Shown: positions 1,786 through 53,699 of the stretch, one piece after another
Layout: each line of letters begins with the position of its first letter
How positions within the stretch are numbered: the first letter of the stretch is position 1
Assembly (NCBI GenBank): GCA_964291265.2
Contig: OZ219747.1
Coordinates: forward strand, 1,376,001 to 1,440,000
Direction: 5' to 3'
Origin: Alphaproteobacteria bacterium
GTDB taxonomy: Bacteria; Pseudomonadota; Alphaproteobacteria; SP197
Length of the DNA: 64,000 nucleotides
Translations under genes and position numbers: made by a program
Notes under the pieces: model-generated
Databases searched by the model: none
Told to the model about the DNA's origin: nothing
What the model saw: only the letters and a program-made list of their open reading frames with translations

Positions 1786-2583
1786 GATGATCTCTGCGAC
1801 ATGATCGAGGAAGCTCTCGAAGCGCCGGGCGGTGCGCCTGCCCATGGCGGCGATGGTGGCGGTTGAGATCCTGACGGCGAAGAGGTCGCTCATGACCTCG
1901 GCGACGCGCTTCTCGGGAATGAACTGGGCGTGCAACAGGTAGGTCACCCAGGCGGTGATGCGCGGCCCGTACTGGACCGGGGCGCTCACGCCGTGCGGGA
2001 AGGCGGCTGTTGTCACGGCGCCGCAGGCGGCGCAGAGACAGCGATGGGCGCGATGTTCGGTGACCTCGAGGGGCTGCGGCTCGGGCATGTCGAAGACCTG
2101 CCGACAGACGGGTTCTGCGTGACGGTCATCATCCGACAGCGCCGCGCCGCAGCCCTTACAGGCAGACGGAGCATGATCGACGACGTGGTCCGGGTTCTCG
2201 GCCTGCTTCAGGGTGACTCCCTCGTGGCCGCGCTGACCGCCACTGGGCCTGTCGGACTTGCCGCGCTGGCTCCGGGTGCGCTTCTGTCGGTTTCCGCTCT
2301 TCTTCTTCGGACCGTCGCTGGCCGGTGGCTTGGAGCTGGTGGAGCTGTCGAGCGCGGCGCTGCGCTCGAGTGCATCAATCCGTTCGCGCAAGCCGGTGTT
2401 CTCCCGCTCCAGCGCCTCGATCTCCCCGACCAGCGTCTCACTCAGGCGCAACATCCCCTGGCCCCAATCCCGGAGGGCCTTGACGGCAGTCACGGCGAAG
2501 GGGTGTGGACTGAACAGGTCCTGAAGGCCCACGAAGGCCTCGTCCTGGGCGGCGATGTCCTCGCGCCAGCGCGAGACGGTCAC
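1786..2583 (-). pseudogene. tnpC: IS66 transposase TnpC, N-terminal part, interrupted by group II intron
   Basis: Leucine zipper, SSKPPASD, GGQRGHEG, CxxC zinc motifs, RQVFD, PVQYGP; GTG start overlaps the MTase stop (GTGA). Confidence 0.88.
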
Positions 2584-3248
2584 GAACCCTCCCCGGCCTC
2601 GACGGCCATGATCGCCGCCAGCACGGCCAGACGTTCCCCCGGCGGCATGGCCTCGTAGCGCCGCCCCCAGTTGGCCGCCTTGCGCTTGATGCACTGGCGG
2701 GCGGTGAAGTTCCGCCCCGCGTAGCGCGACCAGTGCACCCGGTCGGGAGCAAAGTTGAACCATACCACCTCGGTCCGCACCTGGGCCTGGGTCGTCACCT
2801 GTAGCGCCACCCGGCGCCAGCCCGCCAGAAGATCGTCATAGAGCGCAGACGGGTGGCCCGAGACCATCACCTGACAGGGCAGGCCCTTGAGCAGTTCAAG
2901 GAGCGCAACATGGTCCGCCTCCTCGTACTCGAAGCGGTAGCGCCGCGACGAACGCCGCGTCGCGTGCAGATAGGGCGGATCGCTGTAGACCAGCTCCGGA
3001 CCCAGAAACGGGAACGAAGCCAGGAAGGAGTGAGCACAGCCGTGCACCAACTCCACCGGATAAGCGCACTCAAAGGCCTCAAGCGCACGCTCATCACGGT
3101 CAATCCCGATCGAGCGCACAGACGCAGCCTTGCGCTTCATCAGCGCTCCGCCCCCCAGATGGCTCTCAATGTAGACAGAGTGCGGCGGCATCAGCGCAAT
3201 CAGCGCCTGGCACAAACCCGGCGTCGCCTTCGATCCGAAATACCCCAA
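2580..3248 (-). CDS. Compact Dam-like (D12 class) DNA adenine methyltransferase
   Basis: YFGSK, ESHLGGGA (motif I), GIDRD, LVYSDPPY (motif IV), MVSG, TEVVWFNF. Confidence 0.88.
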   Translation of the reverse strand: MGYFGSKATPGLCQALIALMPPHSVYIESHLGGGALMKRKAASVRSIGIDRDERALEAFECAYPVELVHGCAHSFLASFPFLGPELVYSDPPYLHATRRSSRRYRFEYEEADHVALLELLKGLPCQVMVSGHPSALYDDLLAGWRRVALQVTTQAQVRTEVVWFNFAPDRVHWSRYAGRNFTARQCIKRKAANWGRRYEAMPPGERLAVLAAIMAVEAGEGS

Positions 3249-3276
3249 CGGCCGCTCCCCTCATGACAAAGAGCAA

Positions 3277-3305
3277 CTCATAGACTCACCGGCCTAGTAA
3301 GTCAA
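3277..3305 (-). promoter_or_regulatory. sigma70-like promoter of element A MTase
   Basis: TTGACT-N17-TATGAG, about 30 bp upstream of the start; contains TAG-N10-CTA. Confidence 0.55.
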
Positions 3306-3980
3306 GACGCGCAGAATCAACAAACCGACGACACCAAAACCGCACCCAACGCAACCAACGTCAACACAGACTCAGACCTGACGAGGTACCTGGGTAGTTA
3401 CGAACATCCTGAAGCTCAGCGAAGAGGTACGGGAAACCAGCGCTGAGGCGCTCGCAAAGGTCTGGTCCTGGCGCGCTAGACGACGTCAGCTCACCGTCCT
3501 GCCGGTACCAGCGAGGAACGCCGCCCCGTCTTCTTCGAACAGCGCCGCCCGGCCAGGGTGGGGGCGTGGAGGAAGTGCTGCCGGACCATCAGTTCGTTCC
3601 GCTGCGCCCGTTCGGCATCCCCGCGCACCGGCACATCCCGCAGCTTATCACCGCCTGGCCGAGCCGGCGGGTCTGTACATGCCGCCGGAGAACGGAAGGC
3701 GCTGGCAATCCCTCGGACTTGCCCTGCGGATGCGAGCGGTGTCAGGGCCGCGACACGGCTTGATGCCCGCTCCCGTGCGCGTCATGCATGTCGAAATGCC
3801 GGCAGGCTTACCCCGCCAGGCGATTTCGGCTAGCATGGCTGCTCTCGGCCACGACCGACTTGCAGCCGTTGGGTCTGGCCCCCGAGGATACGCTTGATCG
3901 GGATGTGCGCTTCCATGGATGGGCGTGTGCACCCTGCGGCATGAGATGTTCAGCACGATTTGTGACCGAGGGGCAGGCCC

Positions 3981-4859
3981 ATGCCACTGAATTACCTTGA
4001 TCGATCCGCCGACCCCGAGGCCATCAAGGCGGCTCTCAGCCGCGACGGCGTGGTGGCCGTGGTGAACCTGGTCGACGAAGACCTGGCCGACAGGGTGGCC
4101 GCGGAACTGCGGCCCGAACTCGATGCCAGGGGTCTCGAGACGGCCAGCGCCTTCAATGGTGACCTGACCAACCGCTACGGCGGTGTGTTACGGACGGCAC
4201 CAAGCGCGGCCGCGCTGGTCGAGCATGACCTCGTGATCGACATCGCGAACCACGTCTTCCTGCCCCATGCCGCGACATACCGGATCAGCAGCCTGACGGC
4301 GATCGAGATCATGCCCGGAGAAACGCACCAGGCGCTCCATCGCGACGACACGGTCTATCCGATCGACATCGCCGGCATGGAAATGACCCTGGGCGTGATG
4401 TGGTCCCTCTGCGACTTCACCGAAGAGAACGGCGGCACGCGGGTGGTCCCCAACAGCCATCGCCTGCTGCGCTCATGGCACCTTCCGGATGTATCGAAGT
4501 GGGAGGCCACGGTCATGCCGAAGGGCTCGGCCGTCTTCTACCTGGGGTCGACCTGGCACGGTGGCGGCGCCAACCGAAGCAGCACGCCACGCCTCGGGCT
4601 GGTCAACAGCTACTGCCTGGGATGGCTGCGTCCGGAGGTCAACCAGTACCTGATCACGCCGCCCGAGGTGGCGGCGCAGTACAGCCCCCGCGTGCGCGCG
4701 CTGCTGGGTTACATGGTTCACGACTCGGGCGACGACCTGTGCGGCAGCTATCGCGGCGACTGCTCGGCCTGGGTCGACACGCCGCCTGATCCGGCGTGGA
4801 ACAACGCGCGTGGCACGGTGGGCACGATGGAGGACGCGAGGGCGCAGGGCGGAGGCTGA
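3981..4859 (+). CDS. Phytanoyl-CoA dioxygenase (PhyH) family Fe/2OG oxygenase
   Basis: QALHRDD (HxD), DFTEENGGTRVVP, WHGGGAN, GWLRPEVNQ. Confidence 0.9.
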   Translation: MPLNYLDRSADPEAIKAALSRDGVVAVVNLVDEDLADRVAAELRPELDARGLETASAFNGDLTNRYGGVLRTAPSAAALVEHDLVIDIANHVFLPHAATYRISSLTAIEIMPGETHQALHRDDTVYPIDIAGMEMTLGVMWSLCDFTEENGGTRVVPNSHRLLRSWHLPDVSKWEATVMPKGSAVFYLGSTWHGGGANRSSTPRLGLVNSYCLGWLRPEVNQYLITPPEVAAQYSPRVRALLGYMVHDSGDDLCGSYRGDCSAWVDTPPDPAWNNARGTVGTMEDARAQGGG

Positions 4860-4921
4860 CCTGGACGATCACGCCGACTATGATGACCCGTTGATGTCAA
4901 CAACCGAATGGGGAGGTTCTT

Positions 4922-6088
4922 GTGACATTGAATCCACTGATGGAAACGACCCGTTTCCACGACCTGCTGTGCGAAGGCAAGCTGACGAGGCGTGACGCCC
5001 ACCGTGTCATGGCATCCTTCGGTATCGGCTCGCTGACAGCGCACACCCTGGGAGGCAATGCGCTCGCTCAGGACATCGACGAGGACCACCCGATTTTCTT
5101 CACCTGGGGCGGCTATGACGAACCGGAGTTCATGGTCCACTACACCGCGAAGTACGGCCGCGAGCCGAATTACCACCTCTTCGCATCCGAAGACGAGGCC
5201 TTCGCCAAGATGTGGGGCGGCTTCGAACCGCACGTGACCTACCCGTGCGGTCCCTCGCTCAAGCTCTGGTACGACGCGGGCCTCCTAGCGCCGATCGAGA
5301 CCGACCGGCTTTCGAACTGGCCCGACGTCATGCAGGTCTTCAAGGATGTGCCCCACTCGGTGGTGGACGGCGTGCGGGTCTATGTGCCGGAGGACTGGGG
5401 TCAGACCTCGATGGTCATCCGCACCGACATCGCACCGGAATACGCTGATCCCGAGGACCAGACATGGCTGGCGCTGTGGGACGAGAAGTACTCCGGCCGC
5501 CTCTCGATCTCCAACCACTCCTACGAGGCCTTCGCCATCGCGGCCCTCGTCCTGGGTATCAGCCCCTGGAACATGAACGAGGCCGAACGCATCCAGTGCG
5601 AGGATCTCCTGCGCGGGCAGATGCCGCTCAACCGCGGCCTCGAGTCCTCATCCACGGAGCGTAGTCAGGCGGTGGCGGCGGGTGAACTCGTGATATCGAC
5701 GAACGACAACGGGATCGTTGCGCAACTCGCAGCGCACGCCGAAGACACCCCGATGGAGTTCACCTGGACCACGCCCAGGGAGGGTGCACTGACGTGGCAT
5801 TGCGGCCTGTGCATCCATCCCGCCGCGATCAGGGACGGTTTCTACGAGAAGGCGCACGAGATCATCGACTCCTTCATTTCGCCCGAAGCCGGGGCCTACG
5901 AGATCGGCAACTGGTACTACGGGCACTCTAACGTGAAATCCTACGAGGGGTTCGACGAGGAATTCCTCAACTCGATCGGTCAGACCAGGCACGTCGAGAA
6001 GTTCCTCGCCACCGCCCAGTTCCAGCAGACGATGAACGAGCCCGAAGTGCTTGCCAACCGCTGGGAAGAACTGAAGGCCGGGTTCTGA
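4922..6088 (+). CDS. Polyamine-type (PotD/PotF-like) ABC substrate-binding protein
   Basis: Tat-like LTRR leader, FTWGGY, VPEDWG, LWDEKYSGR, PREGALTW. Confidence 0.8.
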   Translation: MTLNPLMETTRFHDLLCEGKLTRRDAHRVMASFGIGSLTAHTLGGNALAQDIDEDHPIFFTWGGYDEPEFMVHYTAKYGREPNYHLFASEDEAFAKMWGGFEPHVTYPCGPSLKLWYDAGLLAPIETDRLSNWPDVMQVFKDVPHSVVDGVRVYVPEDWGQTSMVIRTDIAPEYADPEDQTWLALWDEKYSGRLSISNHSYEAFAIAALVLGISPWNMNEAERIQCEDLLRGQMPLNRGLESSSTERSQAVAAGELVISTNDNGIVAQLAAHAEDTPMEFTWTTPREGALTWHCGLCIHPAAIRDGFYEKAHEIIDSFISPEAGAYEIGNWYYGHSNVKSYEGFDEEFLNSIGQTRHVEKFLATAQFQQTMNEPEVLANRWEELKAGF

Positions 6089-6116
6089 GCCGCTCGTTCA
6101 TCTGACGATGGCCTCG

Positions 6117-6146
6117 GGCCCGGCATCGGCAATGCCGGGCCTGTTG
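6117..6146 (+). terminator. Probable intrinsic terminator
   Basis: Stem GGCCCGGCAT / ATGCCGGGCC after the stop; weak U tract. Confidence 0.5.
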
Positions 6147-6893
6147 CTCCCTCACACGGACAGGGACATGGCCGGCTCTTGTCGTTCGGCGTTGAGATGT
6201 CTCCGCGACCGGTTCAACTGACGTCGATCACGGCATCGTTGCCATGCCGTTCGAGAACGACGGGGAGGACGGGTCCCCATCATCGCGCCACCGGGGCGTG
6301 GCGAGGAGTGTTCGCTTGGCCTGATCGAACCCCCTTGGACGTGCCTTGTATCGGTGCAGCATGGACCACATGGGCACGGTCGAGTCGAGACTCGGATCCG
6401 CCATGGCATGGGATTTGACACATCTGAGTCGGAGTGCGCAGGGTGACCGGCCGACGTTCGGGCCGGGAACTGGTCACGCCTGTCCGACGCCGGGCGATTC
6501 CGCGACGCCTTGCCCTTGTTCGCTTAAGGACCTCGAGGCGTGTTGGTCCGACACCCGGGAGCATGTCCGCGTCCCCGGGAACTTCATGGCCGCTGAGCGA
6601 GCACGACCCGATGTCTTAGCGCTGCACGGACCGGCGAATCGAGGAGTGTGCCGGTCGCGGTGACCGGACATCGGCACTGACCGCGTTGTTGAAAGTTGTT
6701 GTTCGTCATCGCGCTTAGATGGTGATATCGCCGCCGTCGAGGAGTCTGTCGGCGAGAACGGTAAGCCGCCACTCGATCGTTCAAGCCCGGGCGGAGTCTT
6801 GCTGGATCTGTTTTCGCTATCGTGCGCCCTCCGCGGCAGCCATGGCACGAGCAGGGGTCGATTCCTGAGAGCCGACGTCCGGTAGGTGGGTGA

Positions 6894-6981
6894 TGGCGGA
6901 GGGGACGGGATTCGAACCCGTGAGGGCTTTCGCCCAACACGCTTTCCAGGCGTGCGCCTTAGACCGCTCGGCCACCCCTCC
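6894..6981 (-). tRNA. tRNA-Ser(GGA)
   Basis: GGAGGGGTGGCCGAGCGG...CACGC-CTGGAAA-GCGTG, long variable arm, GGTTCGAATCC, encoded CCA. Confidence 0.97.
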
Positions 6982-7034
6982 GTCTCGGCAGACAGCGGTG
7001 AACCTAGCGACTGCAGCGGATGCCGACAAGAGGT

Positions 7035-8837
7035 TCAGTCGGCGAGCTTGAGGGCGGCGAGAAAGGCGTCCTGGGGAATCTCGACATTGCCGAACTGGCG
7101 CATCCGCTTCTTTCCCCTCTTCTGGCGGTCAAGCAGCTTGCGCTTGCGGCTGACGTCGCCGCCATAGCACTTCGCCAGCACATCCTTGCGCAGGGCCGAG
7201 AGGGTCTCGCGGGCAATGATCCTGCCGCCGATGGCAGCCTGGATCGGCACCTTGAAGAGCTGCCGCGGGATGGCATCCTTGAGTTTTTCGCAGATCACGC
7301 GGCCACGGGCCTCGGCCCGGCTGCGTTCCGCGATGAGGCTCAGTCCGTCGACCTGCTCACCGTTGACGAGGATGTCGATGCGCACGAGGTCGCCCTCGAG
7401 ATAGCCGTCGAGATGGTAGTCGAAACTCGCATAGCCGCTCGACACGGACTTGAGGCGGTCATGGAAGTCGAAGACGACCTCGGCGAGAGGCAGGCGGTAG
7501 ATCACCATCGCCCGGCCTCCGACATAGGTCAGATCGACTTGTTCGCCGCGTCTGGAGGTGACGAGACGCAGCACCGCGCCAAGATAGGTGTCCGGGACCA
7601 TGATGGTGGCCCGGATCCACGGCTCCTCGATGGTCTCGATCAGTGTCGGATCGGGAAGATCCGCCGGGTTGTGGAGATCGAAGGCCTCCCCTGTCTTGCG
7701 CGTCACCCGGTAGACGACACTGGGGGCCGTGGCCAGGAGGTCCAGTCCGAACTCGCGCTCGAGCCTCTCCTGGATGATCTCGAGGTGCAGGACGCCGAGA
7801 AAGCCGCAGCGGAATCCGAACCCCAGGGCGGCCGAGTTTTCGGGCTCGAAGTGGAAGCTTGCGTCGTTGAGTCCCAGTTTGCCGAGACTCTCGCGCAGTT
7901 CGTTGTAGTCGCCGGAATCGCTGGTGAAGAGACCGCAGAAGACAACCGGCACGCTCGGTGCGAAACCCTCGAGCGCGGTGGCCGTGGGATGGCGGTCATC
8001 GGTGATCGTGTCACCGATCCGGCACTCGGCGATATCCTTGATGGCGGCGGTGATGAAGCCGATCTCCCCGGGACCGAGAGAGTCGACGAGGACGGCCTTG
8101 GGCGTCATGATTCCCACCCGGTCGACCTCGCGCACCGCGCCCGTCCCCAGCATCCTGATTTTCTGGCGTTTCTCGAGATGGCCGTCGAAGACGCGCACGA
8201 GGATGACGACACCGAGATAGGGGTCGTACCAGGAATCCACCAGGAGGGCCTTGAGAGGCCGATCCTCTCCGCCGCTCACCGGCGGCGGCAGGTGGGCGAT
8301 GATGGCCCGGATAACCTCCGGCACATTGGTTCCGGTCTTGGCGGAGACAGGAATGGCGTTCGAGGCGTCGATGCCGATCGAACTCTCCACGTCACGCCGG
8401 GTTCGTTCCGTGTCAGCGGCGATGAGATCGGTCTTGTTGATGACGGGGAGGATCTCGAGGTCCGCCTCGATTGCCAGGTAGGCATTGGCAACCGTCTGTG
8501 CCTCGACTCCCTGCGTGGCGTCGACGATGAGGACGGCGCCCTCACAGGCACGCATGCTGCGGCTGACCTCGTAGGTGAAGTCGACATGGCCAGGGGTATC
8601 GATGAGATTGATGAGCCAGGATTCTCCGTTGTCATCGTCCCAGGTGAGGCGGACCGTCTGAGCCTTGATGGTGATGCCGCGTTCCCTCTCGAGATCCATG
8701 GCGTCGAGGACCTGGCCACGCATTTCACGCTCGTCGAGGCCGCCACAGGCTTCGATCAGGCGATCGGCCAGTGTCGACTTTCCATGATCGATGTGGGCGA
8801 TGATCGCGACATTACGGATGTGGTCGAATGTCACCAT
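7035..8837 (-). CDS. lepA: Translation elongation factor 4
   Basis: [37 protein letters not shown]. Confidence 0.98.
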
Positions 8838-8840
8838 GGA

Positions 8841-36828: not shown

Positions 36829-37503
36829 TCAGAAGTCCGGGTCGGCATAGTGATCGGCGGGCGGCATGCCGGCAAGGCGGTCCTGGAGGATCGGCCGGAA
36901 CGACGGCCGCGACTTGATCCTCGCGTACCATTCGCGGGTGGCCCGCGAGGAGGACCAGGGAACGTCGCCGACATAGTCGATGCAGGATATCTGCGAGGCC
37001 GCGGCGATGTCGGCGAGACTCAGGCGCTCGCCGGCGAGCCAGAAGCGCGTCGCCAGCACTGCGTCCATGTAGTGCAGGTGAGAACGCATGCTGCGGCGCG
37101 CCGCGGCGAGCACCGCGGAGTCGGGTTTGCCGCGCTTCTGGCGCCACTTGTGGACTTTCTCCCCGATGATCACGCGCGTGACTTCCCGGTGCATCTTCCT
37201 GTCGAACCAGGCGACAAGCCGGCGGGTTTCCGCCCTCTGCGCGGGATCGCAACCAAGGAGGTCCGGTTCCTTGCGGGTGTCCTGGATGAACTCGACAATC
37301 GCCTGGCTGTCGGCAAGGACGGCCCCGTCCTCGTCGACGAGGACGGGGACTTCGCCGGCCGGGTTGAGGGCGAGGAACTCCTTGCGCCGCTGCGAGACAT
37401 CCTCCAGGGTCAAGGAGAAGCACACCCCCATTTCGCCGAGAAACATCCTGACCTTGCGGCAGAACGGTGACATCGGGTCGTGGAACAGCTCAGGCAAGAC
37501 CAT
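36829..37503 (-). CDS. Glutathione S-transferase family protein (FzlA-like)
   Basis: SPFCRKVR, LNPAGEVPVL, SLADIA, KSRPSFRP, HYADPDF. Confidence 0.88.
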   Translation of the reverse strand: MVLPELFHDPMSPFCRKVRMFLGEMGVCFSLTLEDVSQRRKEFLALNPAGEVPVLVDEDGAVLADSQAIVEFIQDTRKEPDLLGCDPAQRAETRRLVAWFDRKMHREVTRVIIGEKVHKWRQKRGKPDSAVLAAARRSMRSHLHYMDAVLATRFWLAGERLSLADIAAASQISCIDYVGDVPWSSSRATREWYARIKSRPSFRPILQDRLAGMPPADHYADPDF

Positions 37504-37573
37504 CCCCTCATGACGTGACCGGGGATCTTATGGACCGGCTTGCCGGGCCAAGACAACCGTTTCAGGGGCAGGT

Positions 37574-42087
<4,514 letters not shown>

Positions 42088-42091
<4 letters not shown>

Positions 42092-43479: not shown

Positions 43480-43771
43480 GACGCCTGAGGTGGGAAGATA
43501 GGTCAGCTACAATGCCATAACTTTGCACTGCAGTCACTCATTCTTTTGCGATCGGAACGCCGGGAGCGTACAACGGGATTGTTATAGTCAGCCTTGCTGA
43601 CCTTTATGTGGTGCTCGTCTTTCCCTATGCTGAACCATGCCGGGCAAGAACCCCATGATCCTGGTGCTGCGGCGGCCATGCCGTGCTTGATCCGATGTCA
43701 TCGCCCCGGGCGCGCCATGGAACGTCCATGACCGGCCCTGCCAACCGGCGGCCGCTTCAGGTGCGTGAGCC

Positions 43772-44548
43772 ATGACCTGGCTGCAGCTGGCCGTGCTGGC
43801 CCTTGTCCAGGGCGTCACCGAGTTCCTTCCGGTGAGTTCGTCAGGACATCTGGTGCTGACCTCGAATGTGCTCGACTGGCCGGACCAGGGGCTGAAGATC
43901 GACATCGCCGTCCACGGCGGCACCCTGCTGGCGGTCATCATCTACTTCCGCAAGGAGATTGTCCGCCTCCTCAGGGGCAGGGACGCTGCCGACCGCCGTC
44001 TCCTGGCTCTCATCATCCTGGCGACGGTGCCGGTGGGCGGAGCGGGTTTCGTCCTCCATGCCACGGGTACGGACGTGCTGCGTGATCCGGTGCTCATTGC
44101 CTGGACGACCCTTGGGTTCGGGCTTCTTCTCCTCGTGGCCGACAGGTTCGCTGGCGCGGCGCGTTCGCTCGCAGACCTCTCGTGGCGTGGCGCCCTGATG
44201 ATCGGCATCTTCCAGGTGGCCGCCCTTGTTCCCGGGACGAGCCGCGCCGGGATCACCATCACGGCGGCCCGTTTTCTGGGCTGTCGGCGGTCGGACTGCG
44301 CGACCTTCTCGATGCTGCTCTCCATTCCGGTGATCGGCGCCGCCGTGCTGCTGGCGGCCGGCGACATGGCCGCATCGGGCGACACGTCCCTGCGAGGCCC
44401 GTCGCTGGTGGCGGCCGCCCTCTCGTTCGGCGCCGCCCTCATCACCATCCGTCTCTTCATGGCGTGGCTGGCGCGAGCCTCCTTCACCCCCTTCGTCATC
44501 TACCGCGTGTGTCTCGCCGCCCTGCTTCTGGCCTGGCTCCACCTGTAG
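43772..44548 (+). CDS. uppP: Undecaprenyl-diphosphate phosphatase
   Basis: QGVTEFLPVSSSGH, PGTSRAG. Confidence 0.96.
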   Translation: MTWLQLAVLALVQGVTEFLPVSSSGHLVLTSNVLDWPDQGLKIDIAVHGGTLLAVIIYFRKEIVRLLRGRDAADRRLLALIILATVPVGGAGFVLHATGTDVLRDPVLIAWTTLGFGLLLLVADRFAGAARSLADLSWRGALMIGIFQVAALVPGTSRAGITITAARFLGCRRSDCATFSMLLSIPVIGAAVLLAAGDMAASGDTSLRGPSLVAAALSFGAALITIRLFMAWLARASFTPFVIYRVCLAALLLAWLHL

Positions 44549-44698
44549 TCCCGGAGAACCCGCTGCGGCTCGAGGCCGCGCAAAGACCTGGCATCACTCC
44601 GAATCGGCCGCCCCGGACACCTGGTTCGATGGCGTCCCTGTGACCGGATCCGATGCCCGGTCATGGCGGCGCCCGCAAGTGCCCCTACCGGTTCCCCC

Positions 44699-44746
44699 TC
44701 AGACATCCTGACATGCTTCCCCGGGAGATCGGGCGAGGATGCCTGA
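44699..44746. repeat. Short inverted-repeat element (TCAGACATCC family)
   Basis: TCAGACATCC...GGATGCCTGA. Confidence 0.5.
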
Positions 44747-44968
44747 AACGTCAAGAGCACCGCTGCCGTTGACAGACGAACGCAACCGGACCGGGACCGT
44801 CCATCCGGGAACACACTCCGCCGTCTGCGACATCGACGGCGCAACACTCCGGAACCGTCTTGCCTGACCCTGGACGATACCAGGATGACTGCGTTCAGGC
44901 CGATGGGCGACATCTTCGCATCACCGTCTGCCAGCCCCGCGTCGCGACAGCCGGGTTCGATCTGAAGC

Positions 44969-45916
44969 TCAAGGCCCTTGCTCCGGAGCGCTGCCGCCGC
45001 GGCGGTAGAGTGTGAGATAGGATGGCACCACCAGTTCGAGGGCGGTGGCCTCGATGCCGAGGTCCTTCAGGGTGGCGGCATCCGAAGCCACCACGTTGTC
45101 GTGTTCGAGAAGCAGAGCCTGATCGTGCGTCAACGGCGGCTGCGGCAGGAGCTGGAAGAGGCGTCCCGCGAGGCGCGCGGCGGCGAAGGGCAACGGCAGG
45201 AGCACGACATGCCTGCGGGTCTCGCGGCGTATGAATTCCATGAGATGGCGGAAGGTCGAGACCACGGGGCCGCCAAGTTCGAAGGTTCGTCCCCGGGCAT
45301 CGTCATCGCCGAGCGCGGCGACGATCGCTGCCGCGACATCGTTGACATAGACCGGTTGGAACCGTGTCGCACCGCCGCCGAAGAGAGGGATGACAGGGGA
45401 GCGGGCCGCCATGCGGCCGAACAGATTGAAGAAGCCGTCTTCCGGTCCGAAGACGATACTGGGACGCAGAATGACCGCATGGGGCAGGGCCGTCCTCACA
45501 GCGTTCTCTCCCGAGGCCTTCGAGCGGGCATAGGAGGATCGTGCCCGGTCCGAGGCGCCAATGGCCGAGACATGGACCATGGAGCGCACCCCTGCCGCCG
45601 CCGCCGCCCGGGCAACGTCGCCGGCGCTCTCGCCATGCAGCCTGGCAAAGGTGCGCTGACCTCTTTCGCGGAGTATGCCGACCAGGTTGACCACCGCGTC
45701 GCTTCCTTCGATGCGCTCTCTGACCTGGCGTGCATCGGTGACATCGGTGGCGACGGATACGATCTGCCCGACCTCTCCGGCTGTCTGCAGAAAGGCGGCC
45801 CTGCCTGGCCGGCGCACGGCAACGATGACCCGCCAGCCACGGGCGGCCAGTCGGCGGACGGCATAGCGCCCGATGAAACCGGAACCGCCGAAGACAACAA
45901 CCGTCCCAACAGCCAT
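44969..45916 (-). CDS. Complex I NDUFA9-family NAD-dependent epimerase
   Basis: VFGGSGFIG, VNLVGIL, YARSK, RPSIVFGPED, FQPVYV. Confidence 0.92.
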   Translation of the reverse strand: MAVGTVVVFGGSGFIGRYAVRRLAARGWRVIVAVRRPGRAAFLQTAGEVGQIVSVATDVTDARQVRERIEGSDAVVNLVGILRERGQRTFARLHGESAGDVARAAAAAGVRSMVHVSAIGASDRARSSYARSKASGENAVRTALPHAVILRPSIVFGPEDGFFNLFGRMAARSPVIPLFGGGATRFQPVYVNDVAAAIVAALGDDDARGRTFELGGPVVSTFRHLMEFIRRETRRHVVLLPLPFAAARLAGRLFQLLPQPPLTHDQALLLEHDNVVASDAATLKDLGIEATALELVVPSYLTLYRRGGSAPEQGP

Positions 45917-45993
45917 GAAGACCTCCAGCAAGACCGGTTGCGGATGATTGAACTTCGAGGGCAGGGCGTCAATTGCCAACAGGGTGTTGCCAC

Positions 45994-46023
45994 TTGACAG
46001 GTTTCCCCTGTGCCCACTAGGAG
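45994..46023 (+). promoter_or_regulatory. Probable tRNA promoter
   Basis: Perfect TTGACA 39 bp upstream of tRNA-Leu; -10 is weak. Confidence 0.45.
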
Positions 46024-46032
46024 AGGCGTCGT

Positions 46033-46119
46033 GCCCAGGTGGCGGAATTGGTAGACGCGCAGGTTTCAGGTACCTGTGGGGGAGACCCCGTGGAAGTTCG
46101 AGTCTTCTCCTGGGCACCA
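46033..46119 (+). tRNA. tRNA-Leu(CAG)
   Basis: GCCCAGGTGGCGGAATTGGTAGACGC, CAGGT-TTCAGGT-ACCTG, GTTCGAGTC, CCA. Confidence 0.97.
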
Positions 46120-46245
46120 GCGCCACCCGACCTTGTTCCGGCAGGCCGGTGCGGTTAGCCTTCGCGGTCCCTGTCGTCCTTCAATCCGGGGTCTCTCCGG
46201 GTTCGCAGGCGTGACGGCCCAACCTTCTTCCACCCCGGCTTGCGC

Positions 46246-46857
46246 ATGGCCAACCTTCTTTATCAGGGAGATCTTCCCTCCGGCCTTGAACTCGGGGCCA
46301 CGGTCGCTGTCGATTCCGAGACCATGGGCCTCAAGCCCTTCCGTGACCGTCTTTGCCTCGTCCAGCTTTCCGGTGGTGACGGCAATGCCCATCTCGTGCA
46401 GTTCTCCAGGGACGATCTCGCGGCGCCGCGGCTGCGCGCCCTCCTGACGGACCCGGACACCCTGAAGGTCTTTCACTTCGCCCGGTTCGATCTTGCGGCA
46501 ATCCGCCACCACATGGGTATCGTCGTGTCGCCCGTCTACTGCACCAAGATTGCGTCCCGCCTGGTGCGAACCTTTGCCGAGCGGCACGGCCTCAAGGACC
46601 TGTGCAAGGAACTCCTCGGAGTCGACATCTCCAAACAGATGCAGAGCAGCGACTGGGGGGCGGGAGAACTCTCGAACCGGCAGCTTGACTATGCTGCTGC
46701 GGATGTTCTCCACCTGCATCGGCTGAAGGCGGAGCTCGATCGCCGCCTGGAGCGCGAGGGACGCACGGAACTGGCCGAGGCCCTGTTCCGCTTTCTCCCG
46801 ACCCGCGCCGAGCTCGATCTTCTGGGCTGGAACGATCCGGATATCTTGGACCACTGA
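46246..46857 (+). CDS. rnd: Ribonuclease D-like 3'-5' exonuclease
   Basis: AVDSETMGL, RLCLVQ, FHFARFD, SSDWG, YAAADV. Confidence 0.93.
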   Translation: MANLLYQGDLPSGLELGATVAVDSETMGLKPFRDRLCLVQLSGGDGNAHLVQFSRDDLAAPRLRALLTDPDTLKVFHFARFDLAAIRHHMGIVVSPVYCTKIASRLVRTFAERHGLKDLCKELLGVDISKQMQSSDWGAGELSNRQLDYAAADVLHLHRLKAELDRRLEREGRTELAEALFRFLPTRAELDLLGWNDPDILDH

Positions 46858-46861
46858 TCCG

Positions 46862-47512
46862 ATGGCCCACCCGCCTGCAGACGGCCTCGCTCCCGAAGAC
46901 GTTCTGCCGCATCCCCGGCACCGCTCCCTGCTGCGCTACACGCGCATCGTCCGCCTGCTGCGCTGGCTGTTGCCGTTGTGTGCTCTGGCCCTGGCGGCCT
47001 TTCTGCTGCTGTGGCCGACCTTCAACATCATCGAGCTGCCCGATGTCATCCCGATCCGTGGACTTGAACAACCGACAGCCGAGCGCTCGACCATGACCAA
47101 CGTCAGGTTCCTTGGAACGGACAGCGACGGCCGGCCCTTCACCATCAACGCCGAAAGGGCCTGGCATGATTCGGACAGGGGCGAAACGGTGTTTCTCGAG
47201 GGCGTGAGCGGTTCCATTGCGATCGGCGAAGGGCAATGGACGTCCTTGCGGGCCGACAGCGGTTACTTTGGACAGGAGCCCCAGGTGCTCACCCTTGAAT
47301 CCTCCGTTCAGGTCACGTCAAGCGGTGGATATCGCCTGGAAAGCGAGCGCGTTCTCATCGACATGAAGAAGGGGACGGCGCGCAGTGATGCCATGATCAG
47401 GGGCACCGGTCCGTCGGGAGGTCTCGAGGCGGAGGGTTTCGAGGTCAACGACCATGGCGGGAAGTTCACGTTTTCCGGCAACGTGCAGGTTGTCCTCAAT
47501 CCAGAGGACTGA
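46862..47512 (+). CDS. lptC: LPS export protein LptC
   Basis: Single TM helix plus beta-jellyroll; upstream of lptA/lptB. Confidence 0.85.
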   Translation: MAHPPADGLAPEDVLPHPRHRSLLRYTRIVRLLRWLLPLCALALAAFLLLWPTFNIIELPDVIPIRGLEQPTAERSTMTNVRFLGTDSDGRPFTINAERAWHDSDRGETVFLEGVSGSIAIGEGQWTSLRADSGYFGQEPQVLTLESSVQVTSSGGYRLESERVLIDMKKGTARSDAMIRGTGPSGGLEAEGFEVNDHGGKFTFSGNVQVVLNPED

Positions 47513-47739
47513 CAGGTGCCGATGCGGCATTGGAGGATCGGCGTCAGGATCGCGGTCGAGTGCCTGTTGAAGCATCAACGATCATCCAGGCAGGATGCAC
47601 AGGATGGAGGCACATGCACGGATGGTGGTTTTGGCCAGTTTCCACTATACCTTGAGGCAGTGTTCTCCTTCGGGGTGTCCGTGAGCATGCATCACGCATC
47701 CTGGACCATACCCTCCGGTGTTCAACTCGAGAGCCTTCC

Positions 47740-48246
47740 ATGAACAAACTCGAGAGCTTCGTGGTCATCGGTGTTCTTGGTCTTCTTGCGGTGTGGCCGG
47801 CAGCCGCACAGATGTTCTCGATCAGCGACTACAACAGCGGCCAGCCGATCGAGGTGTCGGCTGACAGTGTCGATGTCGATTCGGAGTCGCGGGATGTCAC
47901 GTTGAACGGCGGTGTCCAGGTCATTCAGGGTGAGTTGACCGTACGCGCCGACAGCATGGTCGTGCATTATGGTGATGACGGAGACGGCAATCGGGTCGAG
48001 TCCATCCGGGCGACCGGCGACGTCGTGGTTCTCACCGCCGACGGGACAGCGCATGGCGATGCCGGTCTGTGGTCGGTAGCGGAGGGAGTCGTCGTCCTCG
48101 AGAGGAATGTACGACTGGTGAACGATGATGCCATTCTGACGGGCGCCAGGATGACGCTTGATTTGAAGAATGGCCAGGTCAACATCGTTGGCGGAGAGGA
48201 AAGGGTGAACATCCTGCTGAGTGCAGTCGAAGAAGGTGATCAGTGA
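47740..48246 (+). CDS. lptA: LPS transport periplasmic protein LptA
   Basis: Signal peptide, PIEVSAD, OstA-like repeats. Confidence 0.88.
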   Translation: MNKLESFVVIGVLGLLAVWPAAAQMFSISDYNSGQPIEVSADSVDVDSESRDVTLNGGVQVIQGELTVRADSMVVHYGDDGDGNRVESIRATGDVVVLTADGTAHGDAGLWSVAEGVVVLERNVRLVNDDAILTGARMTLDLKNGQVNIVGGEERVNILLSAVEEGDQ

Positions 48247-49007
48247 GCGTGTCCCATGAGAGCGGGCCTGTCCTGGTCAGCCACAACCGGGGTCTCGTCG
48301 CCTCCAACCTGACCAAGAGCTACCGCAAGCGTCCCATCGTCCGCAATGTCAGTCTGAACGTGCATGCCGGCGAGGCCGTGGGCCTCCTCGGGTTGAATGG
48401 TGCGGGCAAGACGACCTGCTTTTACCTCCTCACGGGCCTGGTGGCCGCGGATGCCGGCACGATCATGCTCGATGGCCACGACGTCACGGGATTGCCGATG
48501 TACCGGAGGGCGCGCCTCGGCATCGGCTACCTGCCGCAGGAAGCTTCGATTTTCCGTGGTCTGTCGGTCGAGGCCAACATCAGGGCCGCTCTTGAGGTGG
48601 TCGAGCGTGACTACGATGCCCGCGAGACCAGGCTTGACCTGCTTCTCGCCGAGTTCTCGATATCGCACCTGCGCCGCACCCCCGCCGTGGCTCTTTCGGG
48701 AGGAGAGAGGCGACGCGTCGAAATCGCCCGTGCCCTGGCCTCGCGTCCCTCCATCATGCTGCTCGACGAACCGCTTGCCGGGATTGACCCCATAGCACTC
48801 GGCGACATCCGCGAACTGGTGGCCCAGATCAAGGACAGCGGCATCGGCGTCCTCATCACCGATCACAACGTGCGCGAGACCTTCGGCATCGTCGACCGCG
48901 CCTACATCCTCCACGAGGGCACCATCATCATGGAGGGCCCGCCCGAGGACGTGGCCGCCCACAAGATCGTCCGCGAGGTCTATCTCGGAGACCAGTTCCG
49001 CCTCTAG
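48243..49007 (+). CDS. lptB: LPS export ABC ATPase
   Basis: NGAGKTT, YLPQEASIF, LSGGERRR, ITDHNVRE, VYLG. Confidence 0.96.
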   Translation: MSVSHESGPVLVSHNRGLVASNLTKSYRKRPIVRNVSLNVHAGEAVGLLGLNGAGKTTCFYLLTGLVAADAGTIMLDGHDVTGLPMYRRARLGIGYLPQEASIFRGLSVEANIRAALEVVERDYDARETRLDLLLAEFSISHLRRTPAVALSGGERRRVEIARALASRPSIMLLDEPLAGIDPIALGDIRELVAQIKDSGIGVLITDHNVRETFGIVDRAYILHEGTIIMEGPPEDVAAHKIVREVYLGDQFRL

Positions 49008-49286
49008 CTGAACCGGTCAGTCGCGCCTTCCGCCTGCCGGGAGACAGGGAGACGACCGCCACCGTCTTCAAGCGGGCTCGGTGCAGGTCATCGAGCCCGC
49101 GCCGAGCCGTGCCCGACAGCCGCTCCGGCGGCCCATTCGACCCGTTGTTGACGGGTGAACACGGCACCGTCACGTGTGCCCGGTGTCGGCCACATCCGAC
49201 TCGTCCAGATCCCCGGCGAATTCACTGTTGTCCGCCTTGCCGGGCCGCCCTGTCAGAAGTTTCAGACATCCTGACATTGGACGAGG

Positions 49287-49501
49287 GTAAGCGTTCGGCC
49301 GTGTCGTGATGGCTGATTTTGGTTGGTTTGGGGTTTGCTGACAATCGTCTGAAAAAAAGTTGGTAACGCGGACGCTGCGATACGCACAAGAAATCCGACA
49401 AGCCAAAAAAGGACATCTGACTGAGGCCTCTCCGCAAGGACCGGAAATGCATCCTCAACCGGTGAATATCACCAACAATCACCGCGTGACCGAACGCTTG
49501 C
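49287..49501 (+). mobile_element. 215-bp internal-deletion derivative of IS66 element C
   Basis: Left about 80 bp matches 22659 onward; right about 135 bp matches the DUF4338 3' end and right IR. Confidence 0.88.
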
Positions 49502-49527
49502 ACCTGCGGAATGCTGGTCTCTGTCGG

Positions 49528-49872
49528 TTACTTTGGAGAGAAATAACGCTGTCGGCATCGATTCGCGCACAACCACGACAAGGTTCTGGTGTACAATCCC
49601 GAGACCGACAGCAATCCGAATCCCTCAGGATCTTGGTGTAGAATGATCCTGGCCTGCGACGCCGGATGTCGGATCTCCCGATACGATAATGCCAACGTGA
49701 CCAGGTCCTTCAGACAACCCGAAAGCTGCCAACGACCGGTCGCATCCCGGAACGAAAACTCCTCGCAGACCCGACGGTCGTAACACCGTTCCTTCAACAG
49801 GATGACAGAAACGCGCGCGGGCAGGATGTGAAGAATGCTGGATCGTGCCGTCATGACAGCAGGCCGCATCAA
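49528..49872 (-). pseudogene. Fragment resembling the N-terminus of DUF4338-IS4 fusion transposases
   Basis: RRVCEEFSFRDATGRWQLSGCLKDL. Confidence 0.5.
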
Positions 49873-50084
49873 ATCCTACGCCGCGTCCAGCAGCCTCCAT
49901 TCATCGTGTCATGGCAGGTCCAGTTGCCGTCGTCCATGTTCCTCATGCCAACGAGGTCGGCGAGCACCGCGTCGACATCCTCCTCGCCGGCGCGGATTTC
50001 CAAACCGCGCGCGAGACAGGCCCGCGTCGTACGCGGCCGCCACGCCCGGTCCCAAGACGCCCCATTTTCCCTCCCGTCCCGCGG

Positions 50085-51243
50085 TTACAGGCTCTCGGTC
50101 AGTTCCCGCATGGCGGCGCCGAACACCGCGTCGCGCCACGGTTGGAAGCGTTGGCGGGCGGATTCGACGGACTCGTTGTGAAAAAAGAGGAACCCTTCCT
50201 CTGTCAAAGGAACCAGGCTTGAATTCTGCACGTCTTCTTCGTCGCTGTCCCGGAACTCCAGAAACGGCGCGCATATCAGAGTTCCGTTGAACTCCCGTCC
50301 GATACCGTGAACGGCGAAGACAAGTTTCGCGCGACGTCGCCAATACATGTTCAGAGATACCCAGTGCCTGAACTCACCGAGATTGGCACAATATTTCAAC
50401 TGTTCCCTGGCATTCCTGACAATCTGGTGCCGAAAGTAGTAACTTGTGGAGTCGTCCGCCTCCGTCACCGACACCTTGCTGTCCAAATGTATCCTCTGCA
50501 ATGCGCTCCTTATCGCTCCACCATGCTGTTCCAACCAGCAGCGCAACTCGCGGGAGACCTCTTCGGCGACTTCCACAACCGACTCGCGGTCCTTCTTTTC
50601 TGCATCCGCCGTCTTTTGTGCCGCTACCGCCAGCCCGGAGAGAATTTCCGCAACGCTGTTCCGTTCTCTGAGGACAAGTTCAGAGAGTGCAACAGCCTTG
50701 ACGAATTGACGGTTCTGCAGACGGACAACGAGATCGACAAGAGGCTTGAGTGAACCACCATCGGCTGCTTCCAAGGAATCGATGTAAGCTGATCTGTGAT
50801 CCCGCGTGACAACAAACGGAAACAATCCATCCTGCACCAAGACGAGTGATGCCAATGCTCGGGCAACCCGGCCATTTCCGTCCTGGAACGGGTGAATCTG
50901 TGTGAATCGGTGATGCAGCCAGGCGACTTGAATTTCCAGCGGAAGTTCCGACTTCCGGTGAACCTTGTGCATCGAGATCAATCTCTCCATTTCGCTGGAT
51001 ACCTGTTCCGGAGAGCAGTACTCATACTGTATGCCTTCACGAATCGGCGAATTCTTCTGCTTCTTCCAGTCTCCTCGAACGAGGGGCACTTCTACATGCC
51101 GTCCCAGAGAATCAGTTGCTTCGGTGAACTTCTGGCTGCGGAGCAGCGCCCCGTGCAGTTCCTTGACCCAGGACGTCGACAGCATCCGCGTCTGCTTTAC
51201 GAAATCGAATACGCCATCCAGGGCGTCCTTTTGGTCCCGAATC
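50085..51243 (-). pseudogene. Fic-family protein, C-terminal part
   Basis: HPFQDGNGRVAR motif; joins in frame with 53700-54039 when element B is removed. Confidence 0.92.
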
Positions 51244-51487
51244 GTAACTACTCACCCCCTACTGATGACGGATCGTTTTTCCTGACGGGTTCGGATCCGG
51301 CATTTTCTCTTGCCGCCTTCACTTGCTCGCTGCCGATGATCGGATGTGCGTGTTCCGACTGACAAGAAGCGGATCGATCTTCGGCTTCAGCTCCACGTTC
51401 CGGCCTTGTATGACCAGGTTTTGTCCCCGTGATGATGCAATCATCCACAGCGGTTGGCTGCCTTTCCAATCCTCTGGAGATATGCGC

Positions 51488-51516
51488 TTGACATTGTAGG
51501 AGGGGCACTCTACATG
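51488..51516 (+). promoter_or_regulatory. sigma70-like promoter of element B MTase
   Basis: TTGACA-N17-TACATG containing the dyad TGTAG-N10-CTACA. Confidence 0.6.
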
Positions 51517-51547
51517 CTGGCCATCGGGGCGGTTTGCGTCGGAGATA

Positions 51548-52225
51548 TTGATGGCGGCATGGTACGGATCGAAGGCGACGACGGGTCTGAGCCAGGCGAT
51601 CGTCGCGGCCATGCCGCCGCATGACGTGTACATCGAGGCGTTCCTTGGGGGCGGCGCGATCATGAAGCGCAAGCCTCCGGCGCTACGCAGCATCGGCATC
51701 GACCTCAACCGACGGGCGATCGACACCTTCCGCTGTGACTATCCGGTGGAGCTTCACCAAGGCTGCGCCCTGCGTTTTCTCGAGACCTTCGCCTTCCAGG
51801 GCCGCGAGCTGGTCTACTGCGACCCGCCTTACGTGCAGTCGACGCGCCGGTCGCAGCGCCGCTACCGCTTCGACTGCACGGACGATGACCATGTTGCGCT
51901 CCTCGACATCCTGACGTCGCTGCCCTGCCAGGTGATGATCTCCGGCTATCCCTCGCGGCTCTACGACACGCACCTCGCCGGCTGGCGCTCGGCCGAGGTC
52001 CAGGTCAACAACCAGGCCTGCGTTGTCACCGAGAAGCTGTGGTTCAACTTCGCACCGGGCCGGCCGCACTGGCATACGTGTGCGGGCAGGAACTCGATCG
52101 ACCGCCAGCGCATCAAGCGCCTCGCAGAGAGCTGGGCGCGGCGCTACCGGACGATGCCCGAAGGCGAGCGGCTCGCCGTGCTGGCGGCTGTCATGGCGGT
52201 GGAGGCGTCGTCATGGCGAGCGTGA
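51548..52225 (+). CDS. Compact Dam-like (D12 class) DNA adenine methyltransferase
   Basis: WYGSK, EAFLGGGA, GIDLN, LVYCDPPY, MISGY, TEKLWFNF; full-length homolog of 2580-3248. Confidence 0.9.
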   Translation: MMAAWYGSKATTGLSQAIVAAMPPHDVYIEAFLGGGAIMKRKPPALRSIGIDLNRRAIDTFRCDYPVELHQGCALRFLETFAFQGRELVYCDPPYVQSTRRSQRRYRFDCTDDDHVALLDILTSLPCQVMISGYPSRLYDTHLAGWRSAEVQVNNQACVVTEKLWFNFAPGRPHWHTCAGRNSIDRQRIKRLAESWARRYRTMPEGERLAVLAAVMAVEASSWRA

Positions 52226-53691
52226 ACGGCACGTCTGTGCGCCAGGAGGCCGACGTCTTCCAGAAGCAGTTCCAGGATCTCCGCAAGCAGGGCAAGGTCA
52301 ACCAGGAGTGCGAGGAGCTCTTCCGCGGCATGCTGATGCTGATAAAGCTGTTGCTGACCGTGCTCATGGAGAAGATCACACGCAAGACAAGCCGGAACTC
52401 CGGTCTGCCGCCATCGCAGACTGACAAGGACGAGAGCGCGAGGCGCACCGGGAGCCACGGCAAGGGCCCGAAACCGAACCAGCAGACGGGCGACAACCTG
52501 CGCACGACCACCGTCGAGGAGACGATCGTCGTCGATGCCTGCGACGCCTGCGGCGCCGACCTCCACGATGTCGACCCCGTCGACCGGGAGTGCCGCGTCC
52601 TCTACGACATCGTGTTCGAAGTCGTCGAGCGCCGCGTCGAAGCCGAGATCAAGGAATGCCCGAAGTGCCGGACCCGGACCAAGGGCCGGTTCCCAGACAA
52701 CATGCCGGGCCCCCTGCAGTATGGCGTCAGCATCCAGGCCCTCGTCATCAACCTGCTGATCGCCCAGATGCTGTCCCTGCGTCGTGCCGTCTCGCTCGTG
52801 CACGCGATCTCCGGCATCAAGCTCTCCGAGGCGACCTGCCTCGGCTATGTCCGGCGCTTTCACGATGCCCTCGCATCATGGGAGGAGGCCGCCGTGGCCC
52901 ATCTCCTGCAACAACCGGCCCTGCATGTCGACGAGACCGGCTTCCGGGTCGCCGGCAAGACCCAATGGCTCCATGTCGTCACCGACGGCACCCTGACGTG
53001 CAAGTTCCCGCACCCCAAGCGCGGCCGGGAGGCGATCGAAGAGATCGGCATCATCCCGCGCTACAAGGGCGTCCTGATCCACGACTGCTGGGCTGCCTAC
53101 ATGGGCTACGATCAATGCCGCCACCAACTGTGCGGCAGCCATCTCCTGCGCGAACTGACCTTCGTCGTCGAGTCCAACGGCTACCGCTGGGCGCGACTGA
53201 TGAAAAGCCTGCTGCGCGAGGTCTCCCGCAGGGTCAACAAGAGCGCATCCAAGACCTTGAACGAGGCCGACCGCCGGGCCGTGCGCAAGCGCTACCGCAC
53301 CATCCTCACCCAGGGCGCCAGGGAACTGCCCGACATCCCGCCACGGACGAAAGGAAAACGGGGACGCATCGCAAAGTCCGACGCGCACAACCTGCATGAA
53401 CGTCTCGTGAAACACGAGAAGTCCGTCCTGCGCTTCATGAAGGACCCCAATGTCAGTTTCACAAATAATACCGGAGAGCAGAAGATCAGGATGACAAAGG
53501 TCAAGATCAAGGTGTCCGGATGTTTCCGTACCATGCCCCACGCCAAAGCATGGTGCCGCGGCTCAAGCTACCTCACCACCATGGACGCACTCGGCTACAA
53601 CCCTCACGTCGCCATCCACATCGCCCTCGACGGAAAGGCCGTAGACATCCTCAACCAGCACTACGGACAACCAGACCCTAACAAGGGGTGA
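52213..53691 (+). CDS. tnpC: IS66 transposase TnpC, intact
   Basis: NSGLPPSQ, CxxC pairs, HVDETG, IHDCW, CGSHLLREL, FTNNTGE, KVSGCFR; GGAGG RBS inside the MTase 3' end. Confidence 0.94.
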   Translation: MASVNGTSVRQEADVFQKQFQDLRKQGKVNQECEELFRGMLMLIKLLLTVLMEKITRKTSRNSGLPPSQTDKDESARRTGSHGKGPKPNQQTGDNLRTTTVEETIVVDACDACGADLHDVDPVDRECRVLYDIVFEVVERRVEAEIKECPKCRTRTKGRFPDNMPGPLQYGVSIQALVINLLIAQMLSLRRAVSLVHAISGIKLSEATCLGYVRRFHDALASWEEAAVAHLLQQPALHVDETGFRVAGKTQWLHVVTDGTLTCKFPHPKRGREAIEEIGIIPRYKGVLIHDCWAAYMGYDQCRHQLCGSHLLRELTFVVESNGYRWARLMKSLLREVSRRVNKSASKTLNEADRRAVRKRYRTILTQGARELPDIPPRTKGKRGRIAKSDAHNLHERLVKHEKSVLRFMKDPNVSFTNNTGEQKIRMTKVKIKVSGCFRTMPHAKAWCRGSSYLTTMDALGYNPHVAIHIALDGKAVDILNQHYGQPDPNKG

Positions 53692-53699
53692 GTAGTTAC

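Follow-up and report, generated by a model that had tools for sequence, protein, structure and literature searches.

The stretch of DNA analysed here (the window) comprises 64,000 nucleotides of an Alphaproteobacteria bacterium genome (GCA_964291265.2, contig OZ219747.1; C2:1376001-1440000), and carries insertion sequences (ISs) of the IS66 family in which a passenger gene accompanies tnpC, the gene for the transposase. On balance, these elements are probably single-transposase IS66 transporters equipped with two unrelated helper modules, namely an autorepressor resembling the plasmid protein Upf31, and a predicted Mom-like acyltransferase that has been lost from the copies that spread. The genome (4.83 Mb, 65% GC, two contigs) is rated 100% complete, and repeats with at least three copies make up ∼20% of it.

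IS66 elements and their passenger genes

Pfam searches located an IS66 transposase at four loci of the window, one more than counted in an earlier sequence-only reading, with the passenger gene inside the inverted repeats. The three TnpC types which that reading distinguished (A, B and D; 22-33% mutual identity) were recovered, as was their arrangement: a gene resembling a methyltransferase (MTase) lies upstream of tnpC in types A and D, and a DUF4338 gene lies downstream in type B. The reported lack of tnpB also held, since profile PF05717 gave 0 matches in the whole genome; no search for tnpA was made. The features are as follows.

51244-53699 (+): IS66 type D, an intact 2456-bp transporter IS within a fic gene; target duplication of 8 bp at 51236-51243 and 53700-53707
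51488-51513 (+): type D predicted sigma-70 -35 box (TTGACA) and predicted operator GTAG-N10-CTAC over the -10 box, based on conservation and the Upf31 paper
51548-52225 (+): type D Upf31-family methylase-fold protein, 225 aa, with GGG and DPPY motifs and a helical C-terminal domain
52213-53691 (+): TnpC type D, 492 aa; 13-nt overlap of its start with the gene upstream; NF033517 score 251.9 bits (cut-off 180)
1786-3401 (-): left part of IS66 type A, with the left inverted repeat at 3401 and the remainder to the left of the window
3280-3305 (-): type A, predicted -35 box (TTGACT) with CTAG-N10-CTAT as a variant of the predicted operator
2580-3248 (-): type A Upf31-family methylase-fold protein, 222 aa, 63% identical to that of type D and 44% to Upf31
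1786-2583 (-): TnpC type A, 5′ part; GTGA overlap with the stop of the upstream gene
22659-25543 (+): IS66 type B, first copy, with an 8-bp target duplication
27335-29974 (+): decayed copy of IS66 type B that lacks the left end and has a broken tnpC but an intact DUF4338
29072-29938 (+): DUF4338 protein (Pfam DruA), 288 aa; GTGA overlap with the tnpC stop; N-terminal helical domain and predicted Mom-like GNAT domain
49287-49501 (+): miniature derived from IS66 type B, its left end fused to the final part of DUF4338 plus right end
49652-49865 (-): 5′-end remnant of a DUF4338-IS50 (IS4 family) fusion, ∼73% nucleotide identity to five genome copies

The last of these explains the fragment at 49528-49872, in which a resemblance to DUF4338-IS4 fusions had been noticed correctly. 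In type D, tnpC is preceded by the promoter and a 225-aa Dam-like open reading frame (ORF), in that order; type A is laid out alike, but group II intron DNA interrupts it at 1783. NF033517 scores were above the cut-off for TnpC D and B, while TnpC A is partial in the window and complete elsewhere. IS66 elements have inverted repeats starting with GTAA and produce 8-bp target duplications; throughout the genome, such duplications flanked 12 of 12 two-ended copies of type D, 19 of 26 end pairs of type B and 1 of 4 of type A.

The claim that every IS66 is paired with a predicted DNA-modifying enzyme stands when counted by family (3/3), but not by copy. In the type B copy at 22659-25543, tnpC contains a 660-bp group II intron remnant (∼22930-23590) and a frameshift, and DUF4338 is a broken remnant (∼25200-25490) with a stop, a frameshift and a deletion. 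This copy landed in an older type B right end. Short type B end remnants or miniatures also occur at 16680, 21485-21608, 25625, 49287-49501, 56073 and 57618-57732, and the genome holds 35 left and 49 right type B ends. The Fic-domain gene (- strand) broken by type D is found at 50085-51243 and 53700-54135, the right part probably being its 5′ end.

The passenger of types A and D belongs to the Upf31 family

The MTase-like proteins are 42% (D) and 44% (A) identical to Upf31 of plasmid pBP136 over 220+ residues, C-terminal domain included (E values 1e-61 and 8e-65). The tryptophan equivalent to Upf31 W198 is kept in both, while Y180 and F185 are kept in A and altered in D. The AlphaFold model (predicted local distance difference test, pLDDT, 83) has E. 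coli Dam as its best structural match and ends in two long C-terminal helices. Motifs I, II and IV (DPPY) are present on a Rossmann fold, but only ∼60 residues separate motif I (29-36) from DPPY (92-95), so that a target-recognition domain is missing. The score against TIGR00571 was 38.8, the cut-off being 114.85. Used as the query in a PDB sequence search, the MTase-like protein returned nothing meaningful. The Rossmann fold and the placement of motif I before DPPY are shared with Dam and, in the available text of PMC3299994, with the phage MTases Hia5, Hin1523 and Nma1821; in contrast to Dam-type MTases, the IS protein lacks the target-recognition domain and has extra C-terminal helices. Among the ∼3000 homologues, DPP was invariant in 120/120 sequences compared and the glycines that bind S-adenosylmethionine (SAM) in 119-120/120; the ratio of non-synonymous to synonymous substitution (dN/dS) was 0.26-0.35.

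The sole published test of the family, as presented in the available text of PMC11997246, found Upf31 to have no Dam activity and to give no signal in SMRT (single-molecule, real-time) sequencing in a methylase-free strain. In the same text, Upf31 lowered the activity of its own R751 promoter (a 68-bp fragment) from 4.76 to 0.09 units, ∼50-fold, and C-terminal mutants lost repression. The designation 'DNA-modifying enzyme' remains a prediction for both passengers, and no methylation was seen for the nearest tested relative of the MTase-like protein. Upf31 (of the IncP-1beta plasmids pBP136 and R751) and the IS proteins share their size, motifs, C-terminal domain and a TTGACA-N2-4bp-N10-4bp promoter layout. 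The IS version differs in standing first in an IS-borne operon that also encodes a transposase, in involving no KorB partner, and in its operator letters (RTAG/CTAY, versus ATCG/CGAT for Upf31). By analogy, the type A and D proteins are likely to be autorepressors of the promoter that they share with tnpC. The survey in PMC11997246 covers plasmids only, and a term search of the paper for 'palindrom' and 'insertion sequence' found neither.

A candidate operator overlaps the promoter

Promoters from 175 gene loci were reduced to 99 distinct sequences with TTGAC as a common anchor, which was missing at 8 loci. Two bases past the -35 box, the palindrome RTAG-N10-CTAY was matched at seven or more of its eight positions in 81/99 promoters. 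The 4-bp inverted repeats were perfect in 63/99, and the ten spacer bases were unconserved. The outer pair co-varies: the G-C combination was seen in 13 of the 17 promoters with G as against 13 of 82 (Fisher's test, P = 2e-6, with relatives treated as independent), and it appeared in at least three places on a quick tree. Four plasmid homologues without the TTGAC anchor keep ATAG-N10-CTAT (judged by eye), and in IncP-1beta upf31 promoters the second-innermost pair has co-changed (ATCG-N10-CGAT). In R751, TTGACA-N2-ATCG-N10-CGAT begins 62 nt before the upf31 start, and so should fall within the 68 bp that were tested. A distant Upf31 homologue on a Synechocystis plasmid (L004), near a 7-cyano-7-deazaguanine synthase gene, also has TTGACA with ATCG-N10-CGAT.

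A wider host regulon under this operator was considered and rejected. Of 38 genome matches, 21 were IS promoters and the remaining 17 fell within the range (1-18) given by most other spacers; a spacer of 16 likewise gave 38 matches. C2:14808 holds what is left of a type A promoter and operator, close to which no MTase-like gene was listed.

One Upf31-like module has moved between IS66 lineages

An IS66 tnpC lies immediately 3′ of the MTase-like gene at 77/80 genome loci, often overlapping it, and at 66/80 metagenome loci (of the others, 7 were too short and 7 had another arrangement). A tree was made from 27 proteins, a chosen subset of 116 that included six plasmid proteins; the groups compared were named after the first tree had been seen. 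The IS-borne MTase-like genes form one clade (support 100/99) relative to the plasmid proteins, and the topology grouped by transposase lineage was rejected (approximately unbiased test, P = 0.002 and 0.038). There is hence one MTase-like module, which has been swapped between at least three IS66 lineages. The convergent recruitment proposed earlier is contradicted, the MTases being one clade of one origin, 63% identical and exchanged between lineages.

In some loci the Upf31-like gene is followed by something other than tnpC, i.e. an IS4-like transposase (L215 1039-2382) or, as judged by eye, an IS701-like ORF (L202, L231) or a glycosylase-like ORF (L243 3173-4027); these loci could be additional carriers of the module or could reflect nested insertions.

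The MTase-like gene is intact in 12 of 16 type D copies, split by an insertion in three and truncated in one. Among nine type A copies it is intact in three, each with a broken tnpC, and broken in six; all three copies with an unbroken tnpC carry one common frameshift in it. In two type D elements of genome G275 (L328 and L329; 87% TnpC identity; the two examined of five listed matches), the Upf31-like gene and operator have given way to part of a DUF4338-IS4 gene, namely its promoter and initial 80 codons. This, together with the common frameshift of type A, indicates that the MTase-like gene is not needed for transposition.

DUF4338, a predicted Mom-like protein lost from spreading type B copies

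Not one of the 22 two-ended type B copies has an uninterrupted DUF4338 gene, and yet 19 of them have target duplications. One common deletion is present in 14 copies and another in six, a further copy is full-length but split, and the last has no listed match. The two shared deletions point to two independent deletion lineages that spread after the loss. In contrast, DUF4338 is full-length in 5/5 type B-lineage loci from three other genomes, i.e. it is standard in this lineage elsewhere but deleted in the copies that spread here. Neither passenger, then, is required in cis.

The N-terminal helical domain of the DUF4338 protein was modelled with confidence (pLDDT of the whole model, 67.7). For the GNAT domain (residues 98-239), the top 50 structure matches were all GNAT-type. 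Mom ranked second (Z 7.5, root mean square deviation 3.3, 109 aligned residues), tied with generic GNATs (Z 7.6-7.0) on a model of modest quality. When a profile of nine DUF4338 domains from the genome was compared with seven Mom-family proteins using hhalign, the probability was 94.7% (E 6e-8, 124 columns), whereas a shallow DUF4338 alignment against Mu Mom alone gave 1%. The Pfam Mom profile (PF25680) did not match the DUF4338 protein, and a PDB sequence search with the DUF4338 profile gave nothing meaningful. In the alignment with Mu Mom (PF25680, PDB 8bv8), H58/Y59, R111, S124 and Y159 correspond to DUF4338 H128/Y129, R190, S204 and Y243. These Mom residues are named as important in the available text of PMC13219725. 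Mom's D149 aligns with Q in the window protein, and with E or D in relatives. The region corresponding to Mom's helix-turn-helix-like insertion, which is required for activity, was modelled with pLDDT <50. Compared with Mom, the DUF4338 protein, whose activity is predicted, has an additional N-terminal helical domain and is often fused to a transposase. The known activity of the Mom family is the tRNA-dependent glycylation of adenine in DNA. DUF4338 was already termed a GNAT in the available text of PMC10853773. The DUF4338 protein is likely to be an enzyme acting on nucleic acid.

The gene is under purifying selection (dN/dS 0.19-0.24; ∼3000 homologues). PF14236, the profile of the Druantia protein DruA, had 85 matches in the genome in 10 clusters, all linked to ISs, with seven matches in the IS66-B cluster; DUF4338 is fused to IS50, ISAs1 and IS4 transposases in ∼48 near-full-length fusion genes. 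The window protein's match to PF14236 is partial and, at 131.6 bits, does not reach half of what full-length DruA-type matches score (273-287 bits). A Druantia system is not indicated: within the element the gene is the final ORF, followed by the right inverted repeat, and the other clusters are transposase fusions (no genome-wide search for DruE was made).

Distribution of the passengers within and beyond the genome

Profile PF03050 had 86 matches in the genome (44 of type B, 27 of D, 13 of A and two singletons). Since 84 of these fall in three families, the pairing with cargo represents three events rather than dozens. As background, ∼22 multicopy IS families were searched with Pfam and NCBIfam, using one representative each and with ends defined for only part of them. 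DUF4338 was found in ten families, the MTase-like gene in two, and neither in about ten. The DUF4338 carriers are six IS50-type families (one a remnant judged by eye), two ISAs1, one IS4 and IS66-B. Neither gene was found in the representatives of IS21 (34 copies), IS1634 (20) or ISKra4 (13), the first two being the most abundant IS families of the genome.

At the thresholds used, neither IS66 TnpC nor DUF4338 nor the MTase-like protein had a match in two 2.8-Mb genomes of the same genus; the nearest homologous loci lie in further Alphaproteobacterial assemblies that are rich in ISs. Among 401 genomes sampled from the class, IS66 TnpC was present in 54, DUF4338/DruA in 17 and the MTase-like gene in five. 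Neither gene occurred at the 30 best-scoring TnpC loci of other genomes (flanks covered to at most 1.5 kb, tnpB not included). Among 20 hand-picked lower-scoring loci, five of the B lineage had a full-length DUF4338, one of the A lineage had the MTase-like gene, one had a partial DUF4338 upstream, and 13, several of them on short contigs, had neither. Most of the other IS66 loci inspected lack both genes; the pairing of tnpC with cargo is specific to certain lineages and not a general rule of IS66.

Possible roles of the two modules

In the scheme that we consider probable, the Upf31-like protein, probably a dimer held together by its C-terminal helices, would bind the palindrome and shut the operon. 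Its predicted target is the promoter common to the MTase-like gene and tnpC, which would place the transposase under feedback. As the repressor would be diffusible, each copy would repress the others, providing a copy-number feedback in which a burst of transposase would occur only in a naive host. The DUF4338 protein would acylate nucleic acid, the most likely target being, as for Mom, adenine in DNA, and would either be supplied in trans by the ∼48 fusion genes or be required only on entering a new host.

Several observations weigh against this scheme. The chief one is the conservation of DPP and of the SAM-binding glycines, for which a pure, non-catalytic repressor would have no evident use. 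In addition, repression is transferred from a plasmid protein of 42% identity, the -10 boxes are weak and the promoter is predicted from sequence; the second palindrome arm overlaps the -10 box, so that its conservation is partly a promoter constraint, and the co-variation test counted relatives as independent. For type D, where the gene is intact in 12/16 copies, loss is not the rule. On the side of DUF4338, the points are the structural tie of Mom with generic GNATs, the modest model, the silence of PF25680 and the Q aligned with D149.

Alternatively, the Upf31-like protein may be an active but very narrow adenine MTase that binds its own operator and methylates the adenines in it, transposase expression being off at full methylation and on after replication or transfer. 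DPP in 120/120 homologues, the retention of motifs I and II, Dam as the top fold match and the dN/dS of 0.26-0.35 would all fit such a switch. Each arm of the operator contains an adenine on one of its strands, and SMRT motif calling might miss a target confined to promoter sites. A precedent is the control of IS10 and IS50 by Dam. However, the target-recognition domain is missing and, going by the available text on Upf31, repression depends on the C-terminal domain and induced Upf31 gave no SMRT signal, even though an 8-bp palindromic site is expected ∼70 times in E. coli. We regard this switch as possible but doubtful.

A role of both passengers as anti-restriction DNA modifiers, protecting the element or the carrier DNA in a community rich in restriction-modification (RM) systems, had been suggested from the sequence, and appears unlikely. 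In its favour, the available text of PMC3299994 describes Mu-like phages that hold either Mom or a relaxed Dam-like MTase at one locus, which is a reasonable parallel; DUF4338 keeps most key Mom residues, and the genome has RM systems (six HsdS-domain and six N6_N4 MTase matches). In the proposed check of mutual exclusivity, 0/143 elements carried both passengers, though this may reflect nothing but different lineages. Candidates for a double carrier were discarded: DUF4338 was found at 10/160 loci, but it lay outside the element ends in L261, L010, L082, L035 and L032, was a DUF4338-IS4 inserted in tnpC in L006, and was upstream or on the opposite strand in the other four. Against protection from restriction, the tested homologue Upf31 does not methylate (available text of PMC11997246), and the phage MTases are 281-aa proteins with a region replacing the target-recognition domain, of which the IS protein has no counterpart (available text of PMC3299994). 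Moreover, the recently spread type B copies lack DUF4338, IS21 and IS1634 have neither gene, and the same-genus genome G210 equals or exceeds this one in RM domains (5 and 12 such matches) and yet has no IS66, DUF4338 or MTase-like match. When RM counts were compared, no trend was seen in the five genomes counted (no statistical test was applied). What remains of the idea of DNA-modification cargo is that the genes lie inside the elements, are under purifying selection (dN/dS 0.19-0.35), recur and, for DUF4338, are found on unrelated ISs; the anti-restriction part is poorly supported.

A speculative extension, which we rate as improbable, would join both modules in one diffusible control layer, made of DNA-modifying folds and shared by the ISs of IS-bloated genomes: Upf31-type proteins would methylate and occlude a private operator and thereby count copies and time transposition, while the Mom-like enzyme, pooled over ten IS families, would chemically mark DNA to license or shield transposition in new hosts, and elements would shed their own copy and use the pool. 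That the genes are neutral hitch-hikers, acquired by chance and decaying, is very improbable and already largely refuted: cargo is broken in 22/22 two-ended type B and 6/9 type A copies and absent from close D and A relatives, but dN/dS values of 0.19-0.35, ∼3000 homologues each, a fixed position, the overlap with tnpC, an operator conserved across lineages and a full-length DUF4338 in the 5/5 type B-lineage loci of three other genomes all speak against it.

Group II introns and other features

The 660-bp intron remnant in type B tnpC (window 22930-23590) has no ORF, and its site holds 14 of 37 intron 3′ ends. Seven 2883-bp type B copies (e.g. L164) carry it, six of them with distinct 8-bp duplications; translation from an in-frame ATG near the remnant's 3′ end could yield a transposase of 543 aa; alternatively, the remnant may be removed by splicing. 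The same intron family has 16 near-full reverse transcriptase copies in the genome (e.g. C2:1144139-1146060), occurs in the window at 268-1783 and 54304-55230, and is also found antisense in type B at one fixed site (12/37 ends) and in type A at 1783. IS66 elements are thus the main targets of the family.

The window further encodes an RTX calcium-binding repeat protein (17140-19359) and a TbpB-like protein (19469-21241), similar genes being multicopy in the genome. The tested ORFs of two other multicopy elements (L122 and L132, ∼8 and ∼7 copies) had no Pfam or NCBIfam match; L132 encodes a 561-aa transposase-like protein.

Relation to known elements and implications

These elements presumably fit the single-ORF ISBst12-type group, whose features they match. 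As in known transporter ISs (tISs), an IS66 TnpC, GTAA inverted repeats and an 8-bp duplication go with a passenger inside the ends; unlike in those, the passenger does not resemble a host-benefit gene but a helper or regulatory module that is coupled to tnpC and has been exchanged between lineages. According to the available TnCentral text, tISs are restricted to IS1595 and IS66, and ISBst12 appears as a subgroup name in that of PMC8024623. The available text of PMC7824862 treats Mom in phages only. No paper on either module inside an IS was found, as judged from titles and abstracts; Iyer/Aravind 2009 and 2013 and the Siguier reviews may mention links.

The regulation of IS66 is poorly described, and a candidate operator (RTAG-N10-CTAY) with its cognate protein makes transposase control directly testable; the palindrome is also a proposed binding site for Upf31, in whose study it was left unmapped. 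The results further expose an annotation trap, in that ∼20 orphan 'Dam methylases' and 85 'Druantia' matches of this genome are parts of ISs, which inflates the numbers of methylases and defence systems credited to metagenome-assembled genomes with many ISs. Should DUF4338 indeed modify DNA, it would represent a very abundant class of Mom-like enzymes.

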